Positions 30,047 through 53,083 of a stretch of DNA of 64,000 bases are shown in pieces. The stretch's first letter is position 1. Every line of letters begins with the position of its first letter. Below the pieces are notes generated by a model that saw only the letters and a list, made by a program, of their open reading frames with translations, made no database searches and had not been told where the DNA came from. The translations under genes and the position numbers were made by a program. Origin of the DNA: Terriglobia bacterium (GTDB lineage: Bacteria; Acidobacteriota; Terriglobia; Terriglobales; Acidobacteriaceae); the NCBI GenBank assembly GCA_963797385.1, contig CAWCPY010000017.1, positions 1,335-65,334 of the forward strand. The letters run 5' to 3'.

Positions 30047-31144
30047 CTAATCTGATATCCGCAATCGAGGATCTGCAATCTCGTTTGTCGGCGGGTACTT
30101 CACATCGGGATACACCCGGTCGAACACCACCCACAGCAGCGCCAGCAGCACGAAGAGCAAGACGCTGCCTTCCGGTCCGACGGAGCCGCCGCTCAGCCAG
30201 CGCGGGCCCTGCAGGGAAGAATGCAGCAAGTGGCCGGGGGGCGTCCAACCGCTGTTGGGGACCGAGTAGAAATAGCTCTCGCCCCAGTCCCACGCAGCAT
30301 GAAAGCCGATCGCAAACCAGAGGTTTCCCGTGCGCCGCAGAGTCAGGCAGAAGAAAAAGCCGATCATCATGGCGGCCAGAATTCCCACCCAGTCTTCGCC
30401 CGGATTCTCCAGATGCAGCGCGCCGAAGCCCAGAGACAGCAAGATCGCCGCCGGCCAGAAGCCAACACTCTCGGTCAGGGTGAACTGGGTGTATCCGCGG
30501 GTGAAGAATTCTTCGTAGAAGCCCACGATCAGGAAGAACACGGCCCAGAACACGGCAAACTTCAGCAGGCGCACGCCGTGCAGGGCGACTGCCCCAAAAT
30601 AAAAGACGTGGGCCCCGCGCAACGCCAGCATCAGCACGGTGAGGGAACACATCCCCCACAAGGCGCCTACCCAGAAAAGCCGGCCAAAGGCGTTGGCTGC
30701 AGGCATGCCGTAGCAGCCGAATGCCCGATCTTCGACCCGGGCCATGAGCAGTGCCGGAGCCAGCGCGATGAGGGCGAGTCCCAGTTCTGCAGCGGTCTGG
30801 AGCCACAGGCGTGACACGTTGGGGAGGCCATAAGCGATGAGAACGTAAAGACAGAAGCGCAGGCCGCGGTACAGAATGAGATAGAGCGCAAGGCGCCATA
30901 TCGGACGCAGGCCGCCGCGCCCGATAAATATCTTCTGCGTCCATGCTTCGAAGGGAGAGAGTTTCGTCAGCTCGAAGCCGGAGGCGATGCCGGACGCGGG
31001 AGACGCGGGAGAAACCTCATCACGTTCACCGGGCTGGCTGCCTTGCGGGTCATCCATCTTTGGTTCGTCCATCTGTGGAAGTTTCCCGATTCGTCCCCCG
31101 CCATGGTAAAACACTCGCCGGTTCGTCATGGGACGATTCTTCAC
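30047..31144 (-). CDS. CPBP family intramembrane glutamic endopeptidase (CAAX protease-like)
   Basis: EEFFTRGY, FGALH and HAAWDW motifs in a multi-TM protein. The start is uncertain because it overlaps the divergent ORF by 17 nt. Confidence 0.75.
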   Translation of the reverse strand: MKNRPMTNRRVFYHGGGRIGKLPQMDEPKMDDPQGSQPGERDEVSPASPASGIASGFELTKLSPFEAWTQKIFIGRGGLRPIWRLALYLILYRGLRFCLYVLIAYGLPNVSRLWLQTAAELGLALIALAPALLMARVEDRAFGCYGMPAANAFGRLFWVGALWGMCSLTVLMLALRGAHVFYFGAVALHGVRLLKFAVFWAVFFLIVGFYEEFFTRGYTQFTLTESVGFWPAAILLSLGFGALHLENPGEDWVGILAAMMIGFFFCLTLRRTGNLWFAIGFHAAWDWGESYFYSVPNSGWTPPGHLLHSSLQGPRWLSGGSVGPEGSVLLFVLLALLWVVFDRVYPDVKYPPTNEIADPRLRISD

Positions 31145-39587: not shown

Positions 39588-41717
39588 TTACTTGTTGCTG
39601 GCAGCCGCCACGGCCCAGGCCTTCCCATCAAAGTAAGAAGGCAGTTCCAACCCAAACAATCTCATCACCGTAGGCGCGACATCCACGATCGCAGGCTTCT
39701 CAATCGCAATCTTGCGATTCGAAAACAGCACGCCCGGCACCAGCCGCGGGTCAACGCAGTGATCGCCGCTCCAGGCTTTTAGGTTGTCCTCGAAGATTGC
39801 GGTGGTCACTTTGCCCATGACCGAATCCCATGACGCGCGAAAGCCTTCGCCGTAGCCGACGATCAGGTCGGGAGCATTATCTATATATGGCCCGGCGTAA
39901 ACTGCGTCGCAGTCGAACATGCCGGTGATGCCGACTTTCCCCGATGCCGGATCAACCAGTCCGTCGAGCTTGCCGCGCAGCTCTTCTTTTAGGGCCTCCG
40001 CTTCCGCCCCGGCTTCTACGATTCCTTCGCGCTCTCGGCCTTTGATGTTCATATAGAGCCCGTTCAGGCCCATGGTGTAGGCACGGGTGCGCGACCAGTC
40101 CACGTCTTCGAACCAGTCTCCGCTTTCGGTTTTGCCGTCTTTCAAAGCCAGGTAGCCTTTCTGATGCAGCCAGGCATTCAGATTCATGCAGCGATTGAAT
40201 GATCGGAAGCCGTGATCGGAGATCACCAGCAGCAGGGTCTGATCGTCGATCTGCCGCATGACCCGCCCGACCAGGGTGTCCATGCGGTCGTAGAGGTCCT
40301 GAATCACGCGCGGCTTCTGGTCTTGCGGCACATCTCGTGCCGCGGGATGATCTTTATCGAGATAGCGCCAGAACATGTGCTGTACGCGATCTGTGGTGTC
40401 GAAGACGCAGGCGCACAGGCCCTGCGGAGTCTTTTCCAGCGCGTCGAAGAACATGCGCTCGCGGTCTTCGTGATTGCCGTAGCACTGGGCCAGAAACGCA
40501 TCGTCGTCGAGCACTTCTTCGTTGAGCGCCCAGGTATCTTCCGCCAGACCTAAGGTCGCGTAGGGACCGAACAGCTTCGCCAGGTAGATCGAATAGGTCA
40601 CGGGATGAGAAATGGGCAGGTCGGGGTGTCCGGGATCGATATTCACCGGCGTGACATAGACCTCAACCTCGGGCGAGATTTCCTTCAGGTAGAAGCGGCA
40701 GATGCCGCGAGCCGTGAATCCCATGCCCGCCTTGAACTTCACCGGAACCCATTCAGAGTACTCGCCCACTTTGACAGTGAACGTTTCCGAATCAATTTCA
40801 AACCGCGCTTGGCCGCGTTTTGTGTCGGGACGCAACTTGAAGTCGGCACGCAACTCGCTGCCTGTCCCCAACGGGTTCTCCGGGCCAGGAATGTAGGAAT
40901 GAAATCCCGCGCCATCGCGCTCGACGGGAATGCGCACGCCGCCCTCGCGAAACTTGTCGCTGCTTGCCCGTGTGGTGCAAAAGCAAAATGTCCCCTGGCT
41001 TCCCTTGAGATCGGGCACGCACATGCCGGAAAGCAGCACGCCGGGAAACTTCTCCGGAGGAAAAGTTACCGGAACGCGAATGACGGAGCAGAATACTCCT
41101 GCCTTGCCAAGCCAATGCCAGAACGGCGTTCCCTTGCGCAGGCCCTTGACCTCGGACTTTCCCAGTGGAAGCGAATATTTACCAATCTTCAGGTGTCTTT
41201 TGGGCTCGCTGATCTGCGCCGATGAAAGATACGGAAGATAGTTCTTCAGGTCGCGGGCCAGAAAATCATAGATATTGTGCTTGCCCGGATTGACTCCGGT
41301 CTGAAATGTTGACCAGGCCACTGGAGAGATCGCGGGGAAAGTGGTTCGCAGCGGACGAAAGGTCCCGCTGTCACGAAGCTTGGCCAGGTTCGGCAGCTTG
41401 CCTTCGCTCATGAAGCGATTGGCCAGTTCGGGATCCATGCCGTCGAATCCGACAATCACTACGCGCTTCACTTGCGCTTTGCCGTACGCTCTGCGCCGCC
41501 GGAACATTCGCAGGAGTTGACGAATGGGCCAAGTCATTAGCGCATAGAAGGAGTAAAGAAAGGCGACGAAGATGGTCCAGAACGAAGACAGGACGGCGAA
41601 TCCCGCGCCCGGACCTGCATACGCCTCACTGCGCTGGGGGAACAGCAGCACCAGCATGATGATCAGAAGCAAAGCCGGAAGCAGGCGCTGGTTCGGTCGC
41701 GATTGAAGCCGCTTCAT
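39588..41717 (-). CDS. membrane-anchored alkaline phosphatase superfamily protein (type I phosphodiesterase/nucleotide pyrophosphatase-like)
   Basis: Two N-terminal TMs, then VVIVGFDGMDPELANRFMSEGKLPNLAKL, SPVAWSTFQTG, LLLVISDHGF and WSGDHC motifs. Confidence 0.75.
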   Translation of the reverse strand: MKRLQSRPNQRLLPALLLIIMLVLLFPQRSEAYAGPGAGFAVLSSFWTIFVAFLYSFYALMTWPIRQLLRMFRRRRAYGKAQVKRVVIVGFDGMDPELANRFMSEGKLPNLAKLRDSGTFRPLRTTFPAISPVAWSTFQTGVNPGKHNIYDFLARDLKNYLPYLSSAQISEPKRHLKIGKYSLPLGKSEVKGLRKGTPFWHWLGKAGVFCSVIRVPVTFPPEKFPGVLLSGMCVPDLKGSQGTFCFCTTRASSDKFREGGVRIPVERDGAGFHSYIPGPENPLGTGSELRADFKLRPDTKRGQARFEIDSETFTVKVGEYSEWVPVKFKAGMGFTARGICRFYLKEISPEVEVYVTPVNIDPGHPDLPISHPVTYSIYLAKLFGPYATLGLAEDTWALNEEVLDDDAFLAQCYGNHEDRERMFFDALEKTPQGLCACVFDTTDRVQHMFWRYLDKDHPAARDVPQDQKPRVIQDLYDRMDTLVGRVMRQIDDQTLLLVISDHGFRSFNRCMNLNAWLHQKGYLALKDGKTESGDWFEDVDWSRTRAYTMGLNGLYMNIKGREREGIVEAGAEAEALKEELRGKLDGLVDPASGKVGITGMFDCDAVYAGPYIDNAPDLIVGYGEGFRASWDSVMGKVTTAIFEDNLKAWSGDHCVDPRLVPGVLFSNRKIAIEKPAIVDVAPTVMRLFGLELPSYFDGKAWAVAAASNK

Positions 41718-42538
41718 ACTTGAATTCCCAACGCGCTCTTAAAAATGAAACCTGCGATGAGCGAGACCACAAAAAACAGGACAATCCAGTTCCACTCCGT
41801 CCAGGCGAAGCTGATCTCGCGTGGAGAATAATTTATGGCGATCGATTGCACAGGACTATTATCCGCCAAAGCCGGCTCCCCCGAGGTAAAGATGCGCTCC
41901 CAGAAATGGTCTTTCAATCGAACCGGCGAAACCCGCGCCAGGCCCGTCGCCACGACTACCTGTTTCGAAACCGTCTGCCCGGCGGCTGTAATCTCGATGT
42001 CGTAATGTCCAGCGCGCCCGGCCAGCACGCGCCACACCGCTTCCTTTTCTGTCGGAATATGCACCGCTGGAGCGGAACTCGAGAGTTCGGAAGGCAATTG
42101 CAGTGACACTTCATTGAGCGCGGCTGGATCTTCGACTCGCGCTTCCACCAGAAAGGTCTGTGCCGGCTGCAGCGGCATCCAGCCGAAATAGCGATCTAAT
42201 TGAACGATCATGAAAGTGATGGGCAGAATCGCAATCAGGAACGGCGTGAAGGCTAGCCGCAGGTAGCTGCCCGTCCCGCGCAGGATCTTTCCATAGGCGC
42301 GCATCACCACCGGCAGTTGGTCCTGAAACAGGCGGACAGCCAGCAGGTGAGCCTTCAGGCGGTCTTTGGCGCGACCGATCGCTTTTTGATCCGAAGCGTA
42401 GCGAAACACGATCACCATCAGAAATCCAATCACGATGGAAATCGCAAGCACCCATAAAAGTGGACTGTTGGCCGCGAAATCGAAGAACGCAAACCCGGTC
42501 GGGATGGAGCCTGATGCCATTAAAGTTTGCGAGGACAA
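41714..42538 (-). CDS. hypothetical membrane protein, coupled to the phosphodiesterase gene
   Basis: 274-aa ORF with 3-4 TM segments. 4-nt overlap with the downstream gene start (41714-41717). Confidence 0.55.
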   Translation of the reverse strand: MSSQTLMASGSIPTGFAFFDFAANSPLLWVLAISIVIGFLMVIVFRYASDQKAIGRAKDRLKAHLLAVRLFQDQLPVVMRAYGKILRGTGSYLRLAFTPFLIAILPITFMIVQLDRYFGWMPLQPAQTFLVEARVEDPAALNEVSLQLPSELSSSAPAVHIPTEKEAVWRVLAGRAGHYDIEITAAGQTVSKQVVVATGLARVSPVRLKDHFWERIFTSGEPALADNSPVQSIAINYSPREISFAWTEWNWIVLFFVVSLIAGFIFKSALGIQV

Positions 42539-42550
42539 ATCACGACACGG

Positions 42551-42757
42551 CTACTCGATATAGCCCAAACCCTGCAGCCGTTTGGTCACTTTCTCTTTGG
42601 ATTCGGCACCGCCCCCCTGGTCAGGCGACAGGCGTTTCACTTCCTTCTCGATCGTGTGCAGCACGAACTCATCGACCGACGCATAACCCGAAGCGTCCGC
42701 ACACTGTTTCGCCTTTTCCAGCAACTCGCCTTCAATCTTGATCTTCTGCGAGGACAT
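42551..42757 (-). CDS. small hypothetical protein (68 aa, possibly ribbon-helix-helix-like)
   Basis: IKIEGELLEKAKQCADASGYASVDEFVLHTIEKEV resembles CopG/RHH-type N-termini. This is weak evidence. Confidence 0.4.
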   Translation of the reverse strand: MSSQKIKIEGELLEKAKQCADASGYASVDEFVLHTIEKEVKRLSPDQGGGAESKEKVTKRLQGLGYIE

Positions 42758-42793
42758 TGGTCCGCCTCCTTGTGCTCCGCCTTTTGACGCGCG

Positions 42794-44780
42794 TCAGTGC
42801 TTCGATGAAAGAACTGAATGTCCCATCATACTGCCCGGCTGAGGAATTCCAAATTGCGCGAAGATGGTGGGCGCAATGTCCGTCAGCGCCGGATTGGCCG
42901 CGTCAATCGATCGGTTGCTCAGTAACACGCCCGGAACCAGCGTGTAGTCCATGCAATGGTCGCCGCTCCATGGGTTCGTGTTGTTCTCGAAGACGTCCGC
43001 AGGAAAATTCCCCAGAATGCGTTTGCCATCCCGCGCGATAGCCGCGGTTGTAGCCCACCAGCAAATCTGGCCCCTGCGCCGCGTACGGTCCCTGGTAAAC
43101 CTCGCTGGCCCGGTCCACCCGCGTGATTGCTGCCTGATTGTTCTGAGGGTCGCGCACGGCCAGCAGTTTTTCCTTGATTTCGTTGAGCAGCGCATCCGCA
43201 ACCGCGCCCGGCTCGACAATCCCCTCGCGCTCGCGTCCCTTCAGATTCAGATAGAGGCCATTCAACCCCAGCCCATAGGCGCGAGTGTGGCTCCAGTCCA
43301 CGTTGGCGAAGGCCTGGTCCTGATCGGGATTGGGTTCACTCTTCAACGTGATGTACCCATGGTTCAGCAGCCACGTGTTCAGATTGAAGGACCGATCGTA
43401 GGGAGCGAAGCCGTGGTCGGAGAGCACCAGCAGAGTTGTGCGATCGTCCATGCGCTGCAGGACTTCGCCCAGCACCTGATCAATCTGCTGATAAAACTCG
43501 GGCAATGCCGACCCGTACTGTGCGGCCAACTCAGCGTCGTATTCCGGATGCTGCGGATCGATCAGTCGCCAGAACATGTGCGAATTCAGATCAAGGCTGG
43601 AGAAATAAAAAAAGAAAACGCCGGAGTGAAACTTGGGAAACTCGGCGTCGAAAATCTGGCGATGCTCCGCCAGGACCGTTTTCGCCTGCTCCAGATATTC
43701 CTTATCGTCGAGCACGCCCGCCGACAGGGCTTTCGTATCTTCGGCAATACCCTGGGTGTAGAACTCGCCCACCTCTTCCGAAAGCTTCGCGGGAATAACT
43801 CCTGGGAGTGGAGAGCGGCAGCGCGGGATCGGCGGGATCAATGTTGATGGGCGAGACGTACAGCTCGAAGCGCGGATGCGCCTGCTTCAGATAGAAGCGG
43901 CAGATTCCTTTCACGTTGCCGATGAATGGAATCAGTTGGAACTGAATGTGGACCCAATCGCTCCATTCCCCTTCGCGCAGTACGAATGTCTGGTCCTGCA
44001 CCGAGAATTTTGCCGCAGCCTCCAGAGGATCGACGGAAACGGTGAAGGGTTCGAGTGTGGGCGGCGATCCTTTGCGAAACGTGTTGTCTGGTCCGATCAA
44101 CTTTGCTTTCACCTGTGAATCTTCCACCTGGACGGGAATAATCTGTCCGCCTTCCACCGCGCCCGCAGCGGTCATGGGGTCGTCGGTGTAAAAGGAAAAT
44201 GTTCCGTAGCTGCCACGCAAATCCGGCGTGCCCATGCCGGACAAGGTGTATCCCCTGGCTTTGACCGGAGGGAAATTCGAAGGCATGAGGATGACCGTGT
44301 TGGGCACGCTCGTAATCGTCCAGCGTTTCCCAGAATGCCTTGCCCTGGCGAAGTTGCTCGGCGGTTCCGCCTCCGATCGGGATCACCCAGTTGCCCAGGT
44401 GAATGCCATGCTTCGGCGGTTCCACGCGCGAAGCCGAAAAATAAGGTTGCAGTGTCTTGGGGTCGCGATGGATGAAATCAAAAATGCCGTGCCCGCCAGC
44501 GTTCATTCCGGTAATCAGGTTCGACCATGCGACCGGACTCTGCGGCGGAATGCTGGTGGTGAGCAGGCGGAACGATCCCCTTTGCGGCCAGCGCCGAAAA
44601 ATTCGGCATCTTGCCTTCGGCCATGTACTTTTTCAGCAGTTGCGGGTCCATCCCGTCGATGCCCAGAATGATGAGCTTCTGATCCCCGTGCCATTTCCGG
44701 GGCTGGCAGGAAGGCAGGAGGCCAGCCGTTGCGCACACCAGCAGGAAGAGGCCCAGGCTCCGGATTCGTAGAAAGCGCAA
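42794..44780 (-). pseudogene. second alkaline phosphatase/phosphodiesterase paralogue, broken by four single-base insertions
   Basis: Five consecutive ORFs in shifting frames (44478-44780, 43838-44506, 43702-44307, 42903-43841, 42794-43219) align end to end with the intact 709-aa paralogue at 39588-41717. The junctions lie at about 44577-44580, 44308, 43813-43815 and 43030. Confidence 0.8.
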
Positions 44781-44890
44781 GGTAAGGTGTGATCCTCGCT
44801 ACCCATGATAGTCGATGTCAGGCGGCCGTGTGGCGCGGGCGCCCTCGCCCGCGTGCGTCGGGCCCGCGATCCTGCGGTAAACTTCACAGT

Positions 44891-46598
44891 ATGTTCCGCC
44901 GGATTCTTCCCGCACTTTTCTTTGCTCTCATCGTCGCAAACGCGATTTCCATGCAAGCGGCCGGCAAGCCGAACATCGTCCTGATCACTCTAAGTTCCAC
45001 GCGCGCCGATCGCATGGGTTTTCTCGGCTCGAAAGCGAAAATTACGCCGAACCTCGATGGCCTGGCCCGCCAGAGCCTGATTTTCGAACACGCATATTCC
45101 CAGGCGCCGCTGACGGTGGTCTCCCACGCAACCATCCTTACTGGCACTTATCCCCAGACCCACCGGGTCAGCGAGTTCGGCTCCCGGCTGGCGTCCACGC
45201 TGCCTTTCGTCCCTGACTTGTTGCGCGCAGGTGGATATCGTACCGCCGCCTTCGTCGGATCGATCGCGCTCGATCCGAAAAACGGACTGGCTCCGGGCTT
45301 CGACCGCGGATTTTCGACATACGACGCCGGCTTTCAGCCGCCGGGAGCATGGCCCGGGCCGAAACAGCTCAGTCGATCGGGCAGCAGCGCAAGTCGTCGC
45401 TCGGGCTGCGGCCTGGCTTGCCCGCAATCCTAACGGCCCATTCTTCCTGTGGGTGCACCTGAATGATCCACAGGCTGCGTCCGGCGCTTCCTACAATGCC
45501 GCCGTGGGCGCCACTGATGTTGCCGCGGGAAAGCTGATTGCCGTCTTGCGGGCCCGGAAGCTGTACGACGATGCACTCATTGTTATTGCTGCCGATCACG
45601 GTCAGGGCCTGGGCGAGCATGGCGAGGAGACTCACGGAGTCTTCCTCTACGATGAAACCATCCATGTGCCCTTGTTGCTGAAGTTGCCTCAGAACCAGAG
45701 CGCGGGTAAGCGAGTGAGCGGGCGGGCTTCACTGGTGGACGTTGCTCCCACCGTCCTTGCCATCGCGGGCGTGCCGATTCCGTCGCAGATGCAGGGGCAG
45801 TCTTTATTGAGAATCTCGAAGACGAATTCCGATCAGGCCTCTTATTCGGTCAGCGATTTTCCGAAACGCGGGTTCGGGTGGAGCGCGCTGGAATCCTGGC
45901 GTGCGGGTAAATATCTATACATCAAGGCGCCCCAGCCGGAGCTCTATGATCTCTCGGCCGACCCCGGCGCCACGCGCAATCTGGCCGAGACTTCCAAGGC
46001 CACGCTCGAAACCATCGCCGGTCAGCTGGATGCCTTCGACCGGCGTTTCAGCAACCCCGGCGCCTCCGGAGGCCCTGAACTTACCTCCAGCGAAATGCAG
46101 AAGCTGGCTTCGCTGGGATACGTCGGCCTGCAGAAATCCGCGGGTCCGAACGCCGCCGCGACGGGAGTCGATCCGAAGGATGGAATTGCAGACGCAAACA
46201 AGGTCCTGGCGGCGCTGGCGTTGCTGGACGAAGGAAAGCCGGAGAAGGCTGCGGCCATTCTGCAGCCAGTGCTGGCAACGGGCTCAAGGATGTACCTGGC
46301 CCAATTCGTCATGGGATCTGCGCTGGCCCGCCAGCAACAGTATCCCAAGGCCATTGAGTATTTGCGGCATGCGATCGAGCTCCAGCCCGACTCGACCTGG
46401 GCGCACTACGAAATGGGTGCCAGCCTCTTGAAGAGCGGCGATTTCAAGACCGCAGTTGTCCACCTGGAGATTGCCGCAAGCCGGCTGCCCGGCTTCGCGG
46501 AGGCCCATGCCCTGCTGGCCCAGGCTTACGACCATCTAGGGCGGGCGGAAGAGGCGAAGCGAGAGCGCTCCCAATCGGGGGCCTCGCCGAAGCCGTAG
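44891..46598 (+). CDS. sulfatase-like hydrolase with C-terminal TPR domain, apparent +1 frameshift near 45343
   Basis: Signal peptide, then NIVLITLSSTRADRMG...THATILTG in the frame of ORF 44789..45433. It continues as FFLWVHLNDP...IAADHGQGLGEHGE plus TPRs in the frame of ORF 45231..46598. Confidence 0.75.
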
Positions 46599-46611
46599 TC
46601 CCTCGGCCTTC

Positions 46612-46639
46612 TTGACAATAATCCCATAATGTCTATCAT
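46612..46639 (+). promoter_or_regulatory. sigma70-like promoter of the sulfate-uptake operon leader
   Basis: TTGACA (46612-46617), 16 nt spacer, TATCAT (46634-46639). The hexamers are the same as in the hsp20 promoter. Confidence 0.5.
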
Positions 46640-46682
46640 GTTAGTAGACTTATGTGGCAATTATGTCGTATACTATTTTCCG

Positions 46683-46772
46683 ATGCTAGCCAACCACATC
46701 TCCACGAGCTGTATCTGTACGTGCTGTCGTTGCACGTGTTGCAGTCATCGTGGACGTGGGGATGGAATGTAG
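46683..46772 (+). CDS. candidate Cys-rich leader peptide (29 aa: MLANHISTSCICTCCRCTCCSHRGRGDGM)
   Basis: Manual translation; the ORF is too short for the ORF track. It has 7 Cys codons within 11 codons (46710-46742). No obvious SD. Confidence 0.55.
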   Translation: MLANHISTSCICTCCRCTCCSHRGRGDGM

Positions 46773-46796
46773 CCGGACCAGGACATTCGATTTCTC

Positions 46797-46836
46797 AAAC
46801 GGCCCACGAATCAGATTCGTGGGCCGTTTGCTTTTT
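46797..46836 (+). terminator. strong intrinsic terminator inside the sbp leader (attenuator candidate)
   Basis: AAACGGCCCACGAAT / CAG loop / ATTCGTGGGCCGTTT is a perfect 15-bp stem. It is followed by GCTTTTT and lies 54 nt upstream of the sbp ATG. Confidence 0.8.
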
Positions 46837-46889
46837 ACGGCCCCGGAACCGGGTTCGCGGCGCCGCGTGAAATTTCAAAGGGGAAGGTA

Positions 46890-47915
46890 ATGCAGAGCAG
46901 AGTTCTGGTGGTTACGGGGTTACTGGTTGCGGGACTGCTGCTCCTGTTGTCCATCCCGGGGGGAGCGCAGGGCGGCGAGGTCACGCTGCTCAACGTTTCC
47001 TACGACCCCACGCGCGAGCTGTATCAGGATTTCAATCAGGCCTTTGCCAAATACTGGAAGGCGAAAACCGGCCAGGCGGTCAATATCGAGCAGTCTCATG
47101 CAGGATCGAGCAAGCAAGCCCGCGCTGTCATTGACGGATTGCAGGCCGATGTTGTCACCCTCGCCCTGGCCTACGACATCGACGCAATTTCCCAGAATGC
47201 CGGTTTACTCCCCGCGGACTGGCAGAAACGCTTGCCCGAGAACAGCACGCCCTACACCTCAACCATCGTTTTTCTGGTGCGCAAGGGCAATCCCAAACAC
47301 ATCAAAGACTGGGACGACCTGGTAAAGCCGGGAATTTCAGTGATCACGCCCAATCCCAAGACCTCGGGCGGGGCCCGCTGGAATTACCTGGCGGCCTGGG
47401 CCTATGCCCTCAAACAGCCCGGCGGAAGCGAACAAAAAGCGCAGGATTTTGTGCAGCGTTTGTATAAGAACGTCCCCGTGCTCGATTCCGGGGCGCGCGG
47501 TTCCACCACGACTTTCGTCCAGCGCGAGATCGGGGACGTGCTCCTGGCCTGGGAAAACGAGGCTTTTCTGTCAATAAAGGAGCTGGGGCCCGAAAAAGCG
47601 GAAATCGTTGTGCCCTCACAAAGCATCTTAGCTGAGCCGCCCGTTTCGATCGTGGACAAGGTGGTGGACAAGAAGGGCACCCGGAAGGTGGCCCAGGCCT
47701 ATCTGGAATATCTGTACACGCCTGAGGGGCAGGAAATTGCGGCCAGGAACTACTACCGGCCGCGGCTTGATTCCGTGGCCCGGAAGTACGCTTCGACATT
47801 TCCGAAGCTAAAGCTGGTCACCATCGACGAGGTTTTCGGTGGCTGGCAGGCGGCCCAGAAGAAACATTTTGCCGACGGAGGCGTGTTCGACCAGATCTAT
47901 CAGCCCAGTCAATAA
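46890..47915 (+). CDS. sbp: sulfate/thiosulfate ABC transporter substrate-binding protein
   Basis: Signal peptide, then [25 protein letters not shown]...[24 protein letters not shown], typical of Sbp/CysP. Confidence 0.88.
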
Positions 47916-47920
47916 GTATT

Positions 47921-48784
47921 ATGGCTTTCACTTTCAAAAAACGCAGCAACCTGCCGGGCTTCGGACTGGCGTTGGGCTTCACCGTGCTGTATCTCAGCCT
48001 GATCGTCCTGATCCCGCTGGCGGCTACTTTTCTGAAAGCGTCTGCTCTCAGCTGGGACCAGTTCTGGCACATTGTGGCTTCTCCGCGTGCCGTGGCTTCC
48101 TATCGCTTGACCTTCGGGGCCTCGCTTATCGGTGCTTTGATCAATCTGGTATTCGGCGTCCTAGTGGCGTGGGTGCTGGTGCGCTATAGCTTTCCCGGCA
48201 AGCGGCTCTTCGACTCGCTGGTCGATCTCCCATTCGCTCTGCCGACGGCGGTCGCGGGCATTGCCCTGACCACGATCTATGCGCCCAATGGCTGGCTCGG
48301 CCGGCCACTGGCGTCTATCGGAATCAAGTCGGCGTACTCGCCGCTCGGGATCGCGATCGCGCTCACCTTCATCGGACTTCCGTTCGTAGTTCGAAGTGTG
48401 CAGCCGGTCCTCGAAGACATGGACAAGGAACTCGAAGAAGCCGCGGCCAGTCTCGGGGCCAGCCGGTGGCAAACTTTTTCGCGGGTGGTGCTGCCCACAA
48501 TTCTGCCCGCTGCGCTGGCAGGATTCGCCATGGCGTTTGCGCGGGCGATCGGCGAATACGGCTCGGTGGTTTTCATCTCCGGCAATATGCCGATGCGGAC
48601 TGAAATCACTCCCTTGCTGATCATGACCAAGCTCGACCAGTTCGACTATGCGGGCGCGACTGCCATCGCGGTAGTCATGCTGGTGTTTTCGCTGATCTTG
48701 CTGCTGCCCATCAACCTCTTGCAGAAGTGGAGCAGCAGCCGCGAAGAGAAGACGACTGCCCTGGTCGCGGAGGAGATCCACTAG
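47921..48784 (+). CDS. cysT: sulfate ABC transporter permease CysT
   Basis: Six-TM permease with an EAA-type loop ([15 protein letters not shown]). It is second in the operon. Confidence 0.85.
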
Positions 48785-48786
48785 CG

Positions 48787-49701
48787 ATGGCGACTACTCT
48801 TCCACTCAGCACGCGAAACCTGTTGCCGGCGCGAAGGGTCGCGACGGCCGCCACCGGCGAATCGGCTGTTGTCCGCTGGGTCCTGATCGCCGTGGCTGTA
48901 ATCTTCCTCGGGGTGTTTATCTTCCTGCCGCTGGCGATCGTCTTTTCCCAGGCGTTCGCCAAAGGGATTGGCGCCTATTGGGCGAGTCTGCGCGAACCCG
49001 ACGCGTTGTCGGCGATCCGTCTGACCTTGCTGGCGGCGGGCATTGCTGTTCCCCTGAACCTTGTCTTTGGAATCGCCGCGGCCTGGGCCATCGGCAAGTT
49101 CGAGTTCTTCGGCAAGAGTTTGCTGATCACCCTAATCGATCTGCCATTCTCGGTCTCGCCGGTCGTCGCTGGATTGATTTATGTCCTGCTGTTCGGCCTG
49201 CAAGGAGCGCTGGGACCGTGGCTGGGGCGGCACGATCTGCAAATCATTTTCGCGGTGCCGGGAATCGTTCTGGCCACCATCTTCGTGACTTTTCCTTTTG
49301 TGGCCCGCGAACTGATCCCGCTGCTGCAGGCGCAAGGCCAGGAGGAAGAGGAAGCCGCCCTGGCTCTCGGCGCCAGTGGCTGGCAAACTTTTTTTCGCGT
49401 AAGCCTGCCCAATATCAAATGGGGACTGCTCTATGGCGTGATTCTCTGCAATGCCCGCGCCATGGGCGAGTTCGGAGCGGTTTCGGTGGTCTCCGGCCAT
49501 ATTCGCGGACGCACCACTACCATGCCGCTGCACGTTGAAATTCTTTACAACGAATACCAATTCTCGGCCGCATTCGCGGTGGCCTCCTTGTTGGCCTTGC
49601 TGGCCCTGGCCACCCTGCTGGTGAAGACCGTTGTCGAATGGCGAGCGCGACGGCAGCAGGCGGAGTCGGTGCGCTGGGATGGAGAAGAGCAAACCGCATG
49701 A
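48787..49701 (+). CDS. cysW: sulfate ABC transporter permease CysW
   Basis: Paralogous permease ([18 protein letters not shown]). The start is taken at the internal ATG 48787, 2 nt after the cysT stop. Confidence 0.85.
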
Positions 49702-50726
49702 GCATTGAAGCCAAAAATATCAGCAAAAAGTTTGGGCAATTTGCCGCGCTCGACAACGTCAGTCTGAAGATTCCCTCGGGTGAACTGGTGGCGCTGCTAG
49801 GCCCGTCGGGCTCCGGCAAAACCACGCTTCTGCGCATCATCGCCGGCCTGGAATTTGCTGACTCCGGGATCATCATGTTCGATGGCGAAGACACTACTCA
49901 CCGCACCGCCCGCGATCGCCGCGTGGGCTTTGTCTTCCAGCATTACGCCCTCTTTCGGCACATGACGGTGTTTGAAAACATAGCCTTTGGACTGCAGGTC
50001 CGCCCCCGGAATGTGCGTCCGTCGAAGGAACAGATCCACGACAAGGTGCACGAGTTGCTGGGCCTGATCCAGTTGAAGAACCTGTCCGGCCGCTATCCTT
50101 CGCAACTTTCCGGCGGCCAGCGCCAGCGCGTCGCCCTGGCCCGAGCCCTGGCAGTCGAGCCCAGCGTCCTCCTGCTCGACGAACCCTTCGGCTCACTGGA
50201 TGCAAAAGTCCGCCTGGAACTGCGCCGCTGGCTGCGACAGTTGCACGACGAAGTTCACATCACCAGCGTATTCGTCACCCACGACCAGGAAGAAGCTCTG
50301 GAGGTCTCCGACCGGGTGGCGGTGATGAACGAGGGCCGCATCGAGCAAGTCGGCAGCCCGGACGAGGTTTACCATCACCCGAAGACCCCCTTCGTTTACA
50401 ACTTTCTCGGCAGCGTGAACCTGTTCCATGGCCGCATGGACGAAGAAAATCCCGCCATCCACGATGTGGAAACCGGGGATCTCGTTTATGTGCGGCCGCA
50501 CTTGCTGGAAATTCAGCGCCAGCCCAATGGTGGAAGCAACTTTCGCGCCATCATCAAACACATCAATTCCGCCGGCCCTCTGGTAAAAGTTGAAGCGCTC
50601 AGCGAGTGGGGAGCTCCGGTCCAGGTCGAGATGTCGCAGGAAAAATTCCAGGAGCTTCAGCTGGCCAAGGAAGAAACCGTTTTCATCATCCCCAAAGAGC
50701 TAAAGGTCTTCCACAAGACTCTCTAG
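49698..50726 (+). CDS. cysA: sulfate ABC transporter ATP-binding protein CysA
   Basis: Walker [10 protein letters not shown], signature LSGGQRQR, Walker B LLLDEP. ATGA overlap with cysW. Confidence 0.9.
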
Positions 50727-50734
50727 CTGGAGAA

Positions 50735-50851
50735 CCACGTGGGGACAGCCGCCCTCGGCTGTCCAGCGGAGCGAAGCTCCGCTATCTTCCATGGGTAAAC
50801 CCCGTCGAGCTGCGCTCGACCGGACCGCCGAGGGCGGCTGTCCTCACGTGG
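50735..50851. repeat. four-hairpin REP-like element, full copy
   Basis: CCACGTGGGGACAGCCGCCCTCGGCTGTCC AGCGGAGCGAAGCTCCGC ... GTCGAGCTGCGCTCGAC CGGACCGCCGAGGGCGGCTGTCCTCACGTGG. Confidence 0.9.
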
Positions 50852-51007
50852 CCTCGCGTTACTTTTGTACTCTTTCCCCGCAGCCCCGGTTATAGACACT
50901 ATGAACGGGTAGTGTGCGCACCCCAGGGGCAATCCCCGGCCCGCGTTCCGGTGCGCAGCACAGGCATCAGCTTGATTCTCGTTTAGCTGACTCTTGCGCG
51001 CAATCGC

Positions 51008-53083
51008 TTGCGACTCCTTGCCATGAGCCAGGAACCATACACGACCTACCGGACTGTCGCCCGCCTCGGCGCTGTGCTGTTAATGCTCCTGGGAAGCTTG
51101 GTGCTCCTGGGCTGGCTTTGGAATGTAGGATTCCTCACCAGCGTTCTGCCCGGGCGCATCACCATGAAGCCGAACACGGCCGTCGGCTTTCTGTTTCTCG
51201 GCCTGGCCCTTTTCCTGCTGACCCAGCCCAAAAAGACTCGCAGCCCGCAACTGTGGTGTGCCGCTTCCGCAGCGCTGGTCAGCCTGATCGGATTGCTGAC
51301 CTTGGCCGAGTATGTGTTCCACGCCAATCTGGGGATCGACCAGTTACTGTTCAAAGACGTGGTGCAATTGTCCTATCCCGGCAGGATGGCCCACATTACC
51401 GCCTTCAACTTTTTTATTGCCGGGTTGAGCGTCCTGTTGTTGGCCTTCTGGGAGAAGCAAGCCCGGCTCTCCCAGAGTCTGGCAGCGGTTACCGGACTGA
51501 GCGCCCTCTTCGCCATCGTCGGATACCTGTACGGCGTTCCCCTGCTTTACGGTTCAATCGAGTACACGTCGATGGCGCTTCACACCGGCGCCGGATTTCT
51601 GATCGGTTCTCTGGCTCTCTTGTTTTGTCGGGCGGATCTGGGCCTGATGGAGGTGCTCACCAGTTCCTATGCGGGCGGCTGGCTGGCCCGCAGACTGTTG
51701 CCGGTGACCGCGATTGTTCCGGCTTTGCTCGGCGCTACATGCATCCACAGCCGATTATTTTCGAGCGACGTGCGGCTGAACATCGCGTGTCTGGTGGTGG
51801 TCCAGATCGTTTTGTTCATGACCCTGGTATGGATTCTGGCCTTCGTGCTGAACCGTGCCGAGTCCGAAAAAGGGTTGGCCCAGGATGCCCTGGCCCGCTC
51901 GGAAAAACTTTTGCAACAATCGCAACGGATGGAAGCCATCGGTCTTCTCGCGGGTGGCGTAGCTCACGACTTCAACAACCTGCTGGCCGTGATCAACGGC
52001 TACAGCGATCTCCTGCTCGAGCGTGCCGGTGTGCCCGACGCGGATCGCAGGAGCCTGGAGCAGATCAAGCAGGCAGGCAACAGCGCCGCCTCGCTCACAC
52101 GCCAGCTCCTGATGCTGAGCCGGCAACAGGTGGTCGAGCCTGTAGTCCTGAATATCAACCAGACGGTCGGCGCCCTGGACAAGATGCTGCGGCGCCTGAT
52201 CAAGGAGAACATCGAATTTTCGTTTGTGCTGGACCCGCAACTGGACCGCGTGAAAGCCGACCCGGGACAGATTGAACAGATTGTTCTGAATCTGGTCGTC
52301 AACGCGCGCGACGCCATGCCCAACGGTGGCAGCCTGCGCATCCAGACGAAAAATGTCGAGAGGGTGGACGCTCACGCGGGCCCGGCCACCCCGCCCAGCC
52401 GCTTCGTGCTGCTGGAGGTGACCGACACCGGCTGCGGCATGGACCCCGAAACCCAGGCGCGCATCTTCGAACCATTTTTCACCACGAAAGCTGTAGGCAA
52501 GGGAACCGGGCTGGGGCTGGCCACGGTTTACGGAATCGTGAAGCAGAGTAACGGCTGCATCGAAGTGCAAAGCACCCTGGGGCGCGGATCATCCTTCCAG
52601 ATTTTTCTTCCTTCCGAAGCCCAGGCGGGAGCCGCGCTCGAACCCGGCAAAGATAACAACACCGACCCTGCGTTTTCGGGAGAGACGGTGCTCGTGGTCG
52701 AAGATGCGGAAGCGTTACGCGAATTGATCTGCGGGGCCTTGAGCGCCTCAGGCTGCAACGTGTTATCTGCGCCCCAGGGCCAGGAAGCGTTGCGCATCGT
52801 CAACCAGCAAAAAGGCATGATCGATCTGCTGGTCACGGACGTGATCATGCCGGGAATGAACGGCCCCGCTCTGGCCAAACAGGTCCGCGAACTTCGCCCC
52901 GAGATAAAGGTCCTTTACATGACCGGATACAGCGGCGAGTTTGTCCGCTCAGACATGCTGATTCCCGGCGTGTCTTTCATCCAGAAGCCTTTCACCCCCG
53001 CCGACCTCCGGCGCAAAATCCGCAAAATGCTGGGGGACAAACCCACGTTGGCCAAGAAGGCCGCCGCTGGCAGCGCAGGCTGA
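51008..53083 (+). CDS. hybrid sensor histidine kinase / response regulator with polytopic N-terminal sensor
   Basis: About 8 TMs, H-box (GVAHDFNNLL), N/G boxes (NLVVNARDAM, DTGCGM, GTGLGL) and a C-terminal receiver (VLVVEDAE...DLLVTDVIMPGMNG). Confidence 0.85.
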   Translation: MRLLAMSQEPYTTYRTVARLGAVLLMLLGSLVLLGWLWNVGFLTSVLPGRITMKPNTAVGFLFLGLALFLLTQPKKTRSPQLWCAASAALVSLIGLLTLAEYVFHANLGIDQLLFKDVVQLSYPGRMAHITAFNFFIAGLSVLLLAFWEKQARLSQSLAAVTGLSALFAIVGYLYGVPLLYGSIEYTSMALHTGAGFLIGSLALLFCRADLGLMEVLTSSYAGGWLARRLLPVTAIVPALLGATCIHSRLFSSDVRLNIACLVVVQIVLFMTLVWILAFVLNRAESEKGLAQDALARSEKLLQQSQRMEAIGLLAGGVAHDFNNLLAVINGYSDLLLERAGVPDADRRSLEQIKQAGNSAASLTRQLLMLSRQQVVEPVVLNINQTVGALDKMLRRLIKENIEFSFVLDPQLDRVKADPGQIEQIVLNLVVNARDAMPNGGSLRIQTKNVERVDAHAGPATPPSRFVLLEVTDTGCGMDPETQARIFEPFFTTKAVGKGTGLGLATVYGIVKQSNGCIEVQSTLGRGSSFQIFLPSEAQAGAALEPGKDNNTDPAFSGETVLVVEDAEALRELICGALSASGCNVLSAPQGQEALRIVNQQKGMIDLLVTDVIMPGMNGPALAKQVRELRPEIKVLYMTGYSGEFVRSDMLIPGVSFIQKPFTPADLRRKIRKMLGDKPTLAKKAAAGSAG

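Follow-up and report, generated by a model that had tools for sequence, protein, structure and literature searches.

A Cys-codon-rich leader with an intrinsic terminator upstream of sbp-cysTWA in Terriglobia is a probable cysteine-sensing transcription attenuator

The stretch of DNA analysed here, referred to below as the window, comprises 64,000 nucleotides (nt) of contig CAWCPY010000017.1 from a Terriglobia bacterium (Acidobacteriota), and carries the sulfate transport operon sbp-cysTWA (46890-50726) behind a leader that holds a short, Cys-codon-rich open reading frame (ORF) and an intrinsic terminator. Unless stated otherwise, all features lie on the forward strand. The first gene of the operon, sbp (46890-47915, ATG at 46890), was assigned by Pfam and NCBIfam, and its product is recognised as a sulfate ATP-binding cassette (ABC) substrate-binding protein with an NCBIfam score of 548 bits against a cut-off of 288. 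It is followed by three further genes assigned by the same two databases, namely those for the permeases CysT (47921-48784) and CysW (48727-49701, ORF as listed), and that for the ATPase CysA, which has a TOBE domain (49638-50726, ORF as listed). The upstream ORF (uORF) of the leader is unannotated and occupies 46683-46772; its 29 codons run from an ATG at 46683 to a TAG at 46770-46772 and encode MLANHISTSCICTCCRCTCCSHRGRGDGM. A first-pass annotation of this DNA had described the uORF and its Cys codons, the terminator and the sbp ATG, along with three segments capable of pairing, CGTGGACGTGGGG (46749-46761), CCAC/TCCACG (46694-46706) and CCCACG (46803-46808), and had interpreted the whole as a cysteine-sensing attenuator. 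All of these features were found again at the positions it gave.

Seven Cys codons fall within codons 10-20 of the uORF (46710-46742), and those at codons 14-15 and 19-20 are consecutive, so that the uORF has the at least two consecutive Cys codons upstream of sulfur genes by which mycobacterial polycysteine ORFs are defined. Among the 98,476 stop-free 12-residue segments in the six frames of the window, two contain seven Cys residues, and both lie inside the leader ORF. A second Cys-rich stretch, at 30100-30192 on the reverse strand and the one other place in the window with six Cys in 12 residues, was rejected as a candidate; it is out of frame inside a 365-residue ORF and has no start codon, and is therefore regarded as a chance product of GC-rich coding sequence. 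Also rejected was a 47-residue in-frame extension of the leader ORF from an ATG at 46629, which is out of frame in the relatives L005-L007.

To examine the distribution of the leader, the Sbp protein was scanned against one genome for each species. This yielded nine close relatives (87-97% identity), all of them metagenome-assembled genomes (MAGs) of Terriglobales/Terriglobia within the Acidobacteriota, together with about 70 remoter sbp loci from Burkholderiales, Geobacter, Verrucomicrobia and other Acidobacteria. In all nine close relatives, an in-frame Cys-rich uORF that ends in GM and a stop codon lies approximately 120 nt upstream of sbp. No comparable Cys-rich uORF was found in the roughly 70 remoter loci, except that L070 has a different Cys-rich ORF. 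A metagenome scan with a DNA pattern derived from the conserved 3' part of the leader added 45 further loci, and overall an intact uORF with four to eight Cys codons is present in 53 of the 55 instances in related Terriglobia loci. Loss of the uORF from relatives that keep the terminator, which the first-pass annotation had named as evidence that would count against its proposal, is thus not what the relatives display. The two instances that lack an intact uORF come from faulty assemblies, L083 and L096. The leader copy of L083 (1154-1280) is damaged and contains a run of about 19 G, while L096 has two inverted leader copies (1117-1268 and 2839-2991) with many indels; these copies look like assembly artefacts rather than natural variants.

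Wherever a locus includes enough DNA, the next gene downstream of the leader is sbp (82-100% identity). A covariance model of the leader, R1, detected no further copy in the window, in the 70 sbp loci outside the family or among the L070 group. Likewise, an Rfam scan of 45500-48000 at E values up to 10 returned four chance-level matches (E 2-7, far below the gathering thresholds), none of them within 46600-46890. As judged from these comparisons, the leader is a single family that belongs to one clade and always occupies the same locus. In relatives whose sbp third codon positions are 46-62% identical to those of the window, the uORF remains 65-83% identical and the stretch from its stop codon to the terminator 73-86% identical; between the terminator and sbp, identity drops to 36-57% in the most distant relatives. 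By this measure the leader is evidently under purifying selection.

Several lines of evidence indicate that the uORF is translated. Across the 37 unique leaders, the uORF frame contains no in-frame stop, as compared with 19 and 24 in the other two frames, and it contains 229 Cys codons, as compared with 60 and 3. The only indel inside the uORF is one of 3 nt, while indels of 1 and 2 nt are found 3' of the stop codon. The leaders encode 34 distinct peptides of 29 or 30 residues, each with four to eight Cys. The arrangement of these Cys residues differs between the two main subfamilies, being C-x-C-x-CC-x-C-x-CC (SCICTCCRCTCC) in one and CC-x4-CCC-x-C (TCCTNASCCCxC) in the other, and the N-terminus varies freely. 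The conserved feature of the uORF, as far as the aligned sequences tell, is therefore its richness in Cys codons and not a Cys scaffold.

The conservation of the uORF, together with its probable translation and the conserved tail of its product, RG-x-[GE]-[DG]-[GR]-M, might also be expected of a functional small Cys-rich peptide, one involved in metal binding or in redox or sulfur buffering and made from a short transcript that ends at the terminator and occasionally continues into sbp. That the number and positions of the Cys residues change between subfamilies while the N-terminus drifts is difficult to reconcile with such a function. Moreover, G/E and G/R exchanges are tolerated within the tail, whereas the nucleotides beneath it that take part in the RNA pairings described below (hairpin P3 and region 2) are fixed; because the residues are replaceable and the pairing nucleotides are not, the constraint is read as acting on the RNA. 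A search of a 5.8-billion-protein set with the 47-residue extension returned no candidate, and neither the ORF nor a homologous protein is called anywhere in that set. A peptide composed of 24% Cys would, in addition, be wasteful when sulfur is short. A functional peptide is consequently regarded as very unlikely to be the reason for which the uORF is kept.

The terminator downstream of the uORF (46796-46836) has a stem at 46796-46830 with 16 pairs (nine of them G-C), a 3-nt loop and a CUUUUU tail, and its 5' arm includes GCCCACGA at 46802-46809. It is by far the strongest of the terminator-like matches in 45000-52000 and is present in all members of the family, in which 90% of the alignment cells of the stem are paired. 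The pair 127-146 changes in a compensatory manner, occurring as CG in 24 sequences, AU in 10, GC in two and GU in one. No promoter-like site was detected between the terminator and sbp (46837-46889), so that expression of sbp needs read-through; a transcript that stops at the terminator would be about 154 nt long.

Two further helices precede the terminator. Region 1 (A), CCACAUCUCCACGA at 46694-46707, contains the family core UCCAC (46701-46705), ends 3 nt before the first Cys codon, and pairs with region 2 to give a predicted anti-antiterminator. Region 2 (46748-46762) is composed of B1, UCGUGGAC (46748-46755), and GGGGA (46758-46762), and has two alternative pairing partners, region 1 and the 5' arm of the terminator. 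Both the minimum-free-energy folds and the RNAalifold consensus contain the region 1:2 helix, in which some pairs covary: columns 12-80 occur as CG in 15 sequences, UA in 10 and UG in four, and several types of pair are seen at columns 28-69. The helix is weak in some members of the family. Hairpin P3 (46758-46796), which is also in the RNAalifold consensus, is formed by GGGGA/UUCUC (GRGGA/UUCUC in the family) and GAAUGU/ACAUUC, and carries the UAG of the uORF at its apex. Its cells are 99-100% paired over the 37 sequences; this invariance is partly forced by the search pattern in L081-L125, and the 10 genome sequences found through Sbp, which are free of that bias, show the same invariance.

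The fold of the 247-nt leader is significantly stable (z = -3.85), since none of 200 dinucleotide shuffles folds as well. This stability, the conservation of several helices and the terminated transcript that would arise could also be accounted for by an untranslated structured RNA, either a riboswitch for a sulfur metabolite or a cis-encoded small RNA released by the terminator, with the uORF as a by-product. However, translation is indicated by the lack of stops and the abundance of Cys codons in this one frame, as well as by the indel of 3 nt, and no Rfam match was obtained even at E = 10. Furthermore, the most variable part of the leader is the Cys tract with the N-terminal codons, which preserves its coding properties rather than a fixed structure. 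An untranslated RNA of this kind is thus a highly improbable explanation for the leader.

For the start of the transcript, the first-pass annotation had proposed a promoter of the form TTGACA-16-TATCAT (46612-46639). These hexamers are indeed present (TTGACA at 46612-46617, TATCAT at 46634-46639; 11 of 12 positions match), but they do not constitute the promoter kept by the family. TTGACA is limited to the window's own subfamily, being absent from L005-L007, L009 and most metagenome members, and TATCAT owes its conservation solely to its location within the palindrome discussed below. They possibly mark a second promoter specific to that subfamily. The probable main promoter lies at 46645-46674 and has a -35 element TAGACT (46645-46650), an 18-nt spacer and a -10 element TATACT (46669-46674), with 9 of 12 positions matching. 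Promoter-like matches are not beyond chance on their own, as two were found in the 7 kb of 45000-52000 where 1.5 would be expected. The TAGACT and TATA[CT]T hexamers are nevertheless kept, at a spacing of 17-18 nt, in all 38 distinct promoter sequences aligned, and the order throughout the family is AATGTCTAT-N7-[GC]TAGACT, 17-18 nt, TATA[CT]T, 7-8 pyrimidine-rich nt and ATG.

The end of the -10 element precedes the ATG of the uORF by 7-8 nt in 53 of 53 instances. In addition, no Shine-Dalgarno sequence was found before the uORF, in contrast to sbp, which has GGGGAAGG. On these two grounds the 5' end of the transcript probably coincides with the AUG or lies next to it, which would make the uORF leaderless. 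For comparison, leaderless genes have been predicted at frequencies of 10-19% in three Acidobacteria genomes (PMC3160421).

The -35 element is overlapped by an operator-like palindrome, ATGTCTAT-N7-GTAGACTT (46629-46651), whose core, GTCTA-N9-TAGAC (46631-46649), is invariant in all family promoters and is their most conserved element. With one mismatch allowed, the palindrome occurs once in the window, as compared with 0.28 expected occurrences. The same palindrome, in the form ATGTCTAT-N7-RTAGACWT, is located just 5' of rrf2-sbp operons in other Acidobacteria (L053:2397-2415, L133:956-974 and L136:463-481), so that in these loci rrf2 holds the position which the Cys leader occupies in the present family. 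The best model for the Rrf2 protein of L133 is CymR, with 107 bits; this is below the equivalog cut-off of 195, and the protein passes the cut-off of the Rrf2 superfamily. The Rrf2 proteins of L133 and L136, the two sequences read, contain no Cys. A tblastn search for an rrf2 gene found none in the window or in the family loci. Because the palindrome is shared with CymR-like rrf2-sbp operons, it is probably the operator of a CymR-like Rrf2 regulator that would be encoded elsewhere.

It might therefore be asked whether such a transcription factor alone controls the operon, in which case the hairpin would be a constitutive, leaky terminator or an RNA stabiliser and the small ORF would have no sensing role. 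The exceptional conservation of the palindrome and its recurrence ahead of the rrf2-sbp operons are what this explanation predicts, and the lack of statistical support for the antiterminator, described below, would be of no consequence to it. Yet it leaves unexplained why the ORF has stayed open and Cys-rich through near-saturating divergence with a single 3-nt indel, and why a terminator of 16 bp has been retained between sbp and its sole promoter. Control at the operator and control by attenuation can, moreover, coexist. Control by the operator to the exclusion of the leader is accordingly considered unlikely.

An attenuator requires that region 2 be able to sequester the 5' arm of the terminator. 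The first-pass annotation had suggested a 6-bp antiterminator, CGUGGG:CCCACG. Both segments exist in the window, but this register is specific to the window's own subfamily: over the 37 sequences it is paired in 81% of cells, with many mismatches elsewhere in the family. It was consequently dropped as a family-wide antiterminator in favour of the register one step upstream, UCGUGGGC:GCCCACGA, in which UCGUGGAC (46748-46755) of the window faces 46802-46809 and the helix is stacked on P3. In this candidate register (P3 plus region 2 with the terminator arm), 94.7% of cells can pair, as compared with 32-56% in slid controls. When the leader was folded with a ribosome masked at successive positions, 6-10 of the 14 arm nucleotides were sequestered in most Cys-codon stalls, versus 0-5 when the ribosome was placed at the stop codon.

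Several observations nevertheless weigh against the attenuator. No pair of the candidate antiterminator changes on both sides, and at pair 73-127, 13 sequences carry a change in the terminator arm that is not matched in region 2; a UG insertion gives the subfamily concerned two additional pairs. When the upstream sequence is dinucleotide-shuffled, the C-rich terminator arm is sequestered at about the same frequency as with the native sequence, and the masked folding is for this reason not counted in favour of the antiterminator. For the resemblance of region 2 to the terminator's 3' arm, the median p value is 0.11 (0.14 in the window). At equilibrium, the untranslated truncated leader prefers the antiterminator in 28 of 37 members, which means that the region 1:2 lock is not dominant everywhere. 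As regards the sample, all members of the family come from MAGs or metagenomes, and 27 of the 37 leader sequences were collected by means of a search pattern in which 21 bases of P3 and its flank are prescribed; since the sequences are both related and in large part pattern-ascertained, the counts given above are not independent. Finally, the transcription start is placed by hexamer spacing only. Within the model, the antiterminator is the weakest link.

Set against these points are the features for which the comparison provides direct support: the alignments argue for a conserved, translatable Cys-rich ORF, for a covarying terminator, and for a fixed position of both between the promoter and sbp. 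The leader also has three properties by which attenuators are recognised, namely a short leader ORF in which codons for the regulated pathway's amino acid are over-represented, an intrinsic terminator between that ORF and the first structural gene with no later promoter-like site, and an anti-antiterminator (region 1:2) in which region 1 lies beside the regulatory codons. The central proposal of the first-pass annotation, that a leader ORF of Cys codons and an intrinsic terminator make up a cysteine-sensing attenuator of sbp-cysTWA, is upheld by the conserved Cys-rich frame, the compensatory changes in the terminator and the constancy of sbp downstream. It is likely that the leader is a ribosome-mediated transcription attenuator, which would sense charged tRNA-Cys and thereby set the level of read-through into sbp-cysTWA.

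The presumed response to cysteine can be pictured as follows. Transcription from TAGACT-N18-TATACT would begin at or next to the AUG of the 29-codon leader ORF. With cysteine plentiful, the ribosome would pass the seven Cys codons, reach the UAG, unwind P3 and cover region 2; the 5' arm of the terminator would then be free, the 16-bp terminator would form, and transcription would end about 55 nt before sbp. With Cys-tRNA scarce, the ribosome would instead stall within codons 10-20, where it would cover or sterically block region 1 and leave region 2 free. Region 2 (UCGUGGRC) could then pair with GCCCACGA of the terminator 5' arm, stacked on P3, and this composite antiterminator would allow RNA polymerase to read into sbp-cysTWA. 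A CymR-like Rrf2 protein probably binds the palindrome that overlaps the -35 element, and this operator would add a second level of control, at the initiation step. Occlusion of the terminator by the ribosome itself, as in pyrBI, was rejected as a mechanism: 24 nt separate the stop codon from the stem, and regulation would run in the opposite sense.

The proteins of the operon are themselves poor in Cys. Together, the sbp-cysTWA products contain two Cys in 1314 residues, against about 11 expected from the Cys background of 0.87% in the other ORFs of the window; Sbp, CysT and CysA have none, and both residues are in the CysW ORF as listed. The Sbp proteins of relatives contain none or one. Such a composition suits proteins that are needed while cysteine is short.

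Two small GC-rich palindromic hairpins, CCCGGAACCGGG and CGCGGCGCCGCG, lie in 46837-46889, 3' of the terminator and 5' of the Shine-Dalgarno sequence of sbp; this segment is conserved within the window's subfamily and is not conserved in the distant one. On its other side, the leader adjoins a gene with sulfatase and TPR domains (Pfam and NCBIfam), which is syntenic across the family loci. In the window this gene is seemingly split over two overlapping frames, 44789-45433 and 45231-46598, of which one matches positions 1-110 of the Sulfatase profile and the other positions 146-301 as well as SGSH_C and TPR. The split suggests a frameshift, arising either from a pseudogene or from a sequencing error. 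Along with two Phosphodiest-type genes, the sulfatase and TPR gene makes up an alkaline-phosphatase superfamily cluster at 39588-46598, directly 5' of the sulfate transporter, and the locus may serve to scavenge organic sulfate or phosphate esters.

Another Cys-rich uORF, not homologous to that of the family, is found 5' of sbp in other MAGs of the Acidobacteriaceae (L070:2710-2865 and L126-L129:1277-1441), where the peptides end in CRLGCCSFCPCCCSR and in CRVGGCSFCPCCCCCSL, each followed by the stop codon. In this uORF a TGT repeat has expanded so that three Cys become five; there is no obvious terminator, and a degenerate copy of the same operator lies nearby. L130-L135, which are close relatives of these loci, either lack that uORF or, in the case of L134, have an 11-codon ORF that ends in ACCR and a stop. 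There is perhaps an even chance that the Acidobacteriota evolved cysteine-sensing sbp leaders independently of the Actinobacteria, and possibly did so twice, once in the terminator family and once in the uORF that ends in CSFCPCCCCCSL and a stop (L070 and L126-L129), with both leaders layered on an ancestral CymR-like operator in the position of rrf2. If this is true, the terminator family would be the first classical terminator/antiterminator cysteine attenuator tied to sulfur uptake, and Cys-codon control of the 'ribulon' type would be a solution that has recurred across phyla.

With respect to the operator, the closest known system is CymR, the Rrf2 regulator that controls cysteine metabolism in Firmicutes. 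The likeness is that the palindrome of the present family also precedes CymR-like rrf2 genes in an operon with sbp. Unlike the Firmicutes system, the Rrf2 protein of L133 scores below the equivalog level, the operator is a predicted one, and neither the window nor the family loci have yielded an rrf2 gene.

With respect to the leader, Cys codons have been implicated in regulation elsewhere. Leaderless polycysteine small ORFs (sORFs), termed the 'Cys ribulon', confer a response to cysteine in M. smegmatis (Canestrari et al. 2020, bioRxiv 10.1101/834739). The case studied in detail, Ms5788A, is controlled at the level of translation, through pairing of its Cys tract with the Shine-Dalgarno sequence of the following gene and with no terminator involved (bioRxiv 10.1101/834739). 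The same authors left open whether other mycobacterial loci act transcriptionally, and their polycysteine set includes Ms4527 and Ms4533 (bioRxiv 10.1101/834739). Cys leader ORFs in mycobacteria had been predicted earlier, with no terminators found (Seliverstov et al. 2005, PMC1262725). The mycobacterial sORFs resemble the Acidobacteria leader in being short, unannotated Cys-rich ORFs that open the transcript, upstream of genes for the assimilation of sulfur or cysteine, and that start at or near its 5' end, as is probable here; in both, a ribosome stalled at the Cys codons would serve as the sensor. The Ms4527/Ms4533 region includes genes for sulfate assimilation and sulfate transport. The Acidobacteria leader differs in its strong terminator, in its phylum and in the absence of sequence homology. 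It differs also in that the Shine-Dalgarno region of sbp is unpaired in both the minimum-free-energy and the centroid folds, and the translational mechanism of mycobacteria, with its pairing of Cys tract and Shine-Dalgarno sequence and its lack of a terminator, therefore does not apply to it.

A second precedent is the uORFC-8-2 motif, predicted upstream of cysS in Rhodobacterales, which has two tandem Cys codons and an intrinsic terminator (Brewer et al. 2021, PMC8632094). Both this motif and the present leader are predicted ribosome-mediated attenuators with Cys codons in the first stem and an intrinsic terminator at the 3' side. uORFC-8-2, however, has two Cys codons, is associated with cysS in Alphaproteobacteria and is not described as leaderless, whereas the present leader has four to eight Cys codons and precedes a sulfate transporter in Acidobacteriota. 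Nor do the family loci belong to the motif by other measures, since sbp lies downstream in all of them and no Rfam match was obtained, although Rfam 15 may not hold uORFC-8-2.

Since attenuators with Cys leader ORFs had already been described in Actinobacteria and predicted in Rhodobacterales, the case is less novel than the first-pass annotation implied. Its claim does stand for this group of organisms: no description of a Cys-codon leader attenuator was found in the literature on Acidobacteria, and no earlier case could be found in the Acidobacteriota, or ahead of a sulfate transporter in combination with a classical terminator. Acidobacteria are numerous in soil and difficult to work with, and almost none of their cis-regulatory RNAs has a function assigned to it (PMC2965389). 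The leader family provides a covariance model and a hypothesis on how a dominant soil clade regulates its acquisition of sulfur, and would add a second phylum in which stalling at Cys codons governs sulfur metabolism.

The classical attenuators of Proteobacteria (trp, his, leu, thr, ilv and pheA) share the architecture of the Acidobacteria leader, with a promoter, a short ORF that contains a run of regulatory codons, a region 1:2 hairpin, a terminator and an operon for synthesis or uptake of the amino acid concerned in succession. In contrast to those systems, the amino acid sensed here would be cysteine, the operon regulated imports a sulfur precursor, and the uORF has no Shine-Dalgarno sequence. 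In addition, where the classical attenuators form one long 2:3 helix, the leader of sbp-cysTWA would use a composite antiterminator, in which a short switching helix is stacked on a constant hairpin that contains the stop codon. The combination of a probable leaderless start, as in the mycobacterial sORFs, with a classical intrinsic terminator would permit a direct comparison of transcriptional and translational attenuation by Cys codons.

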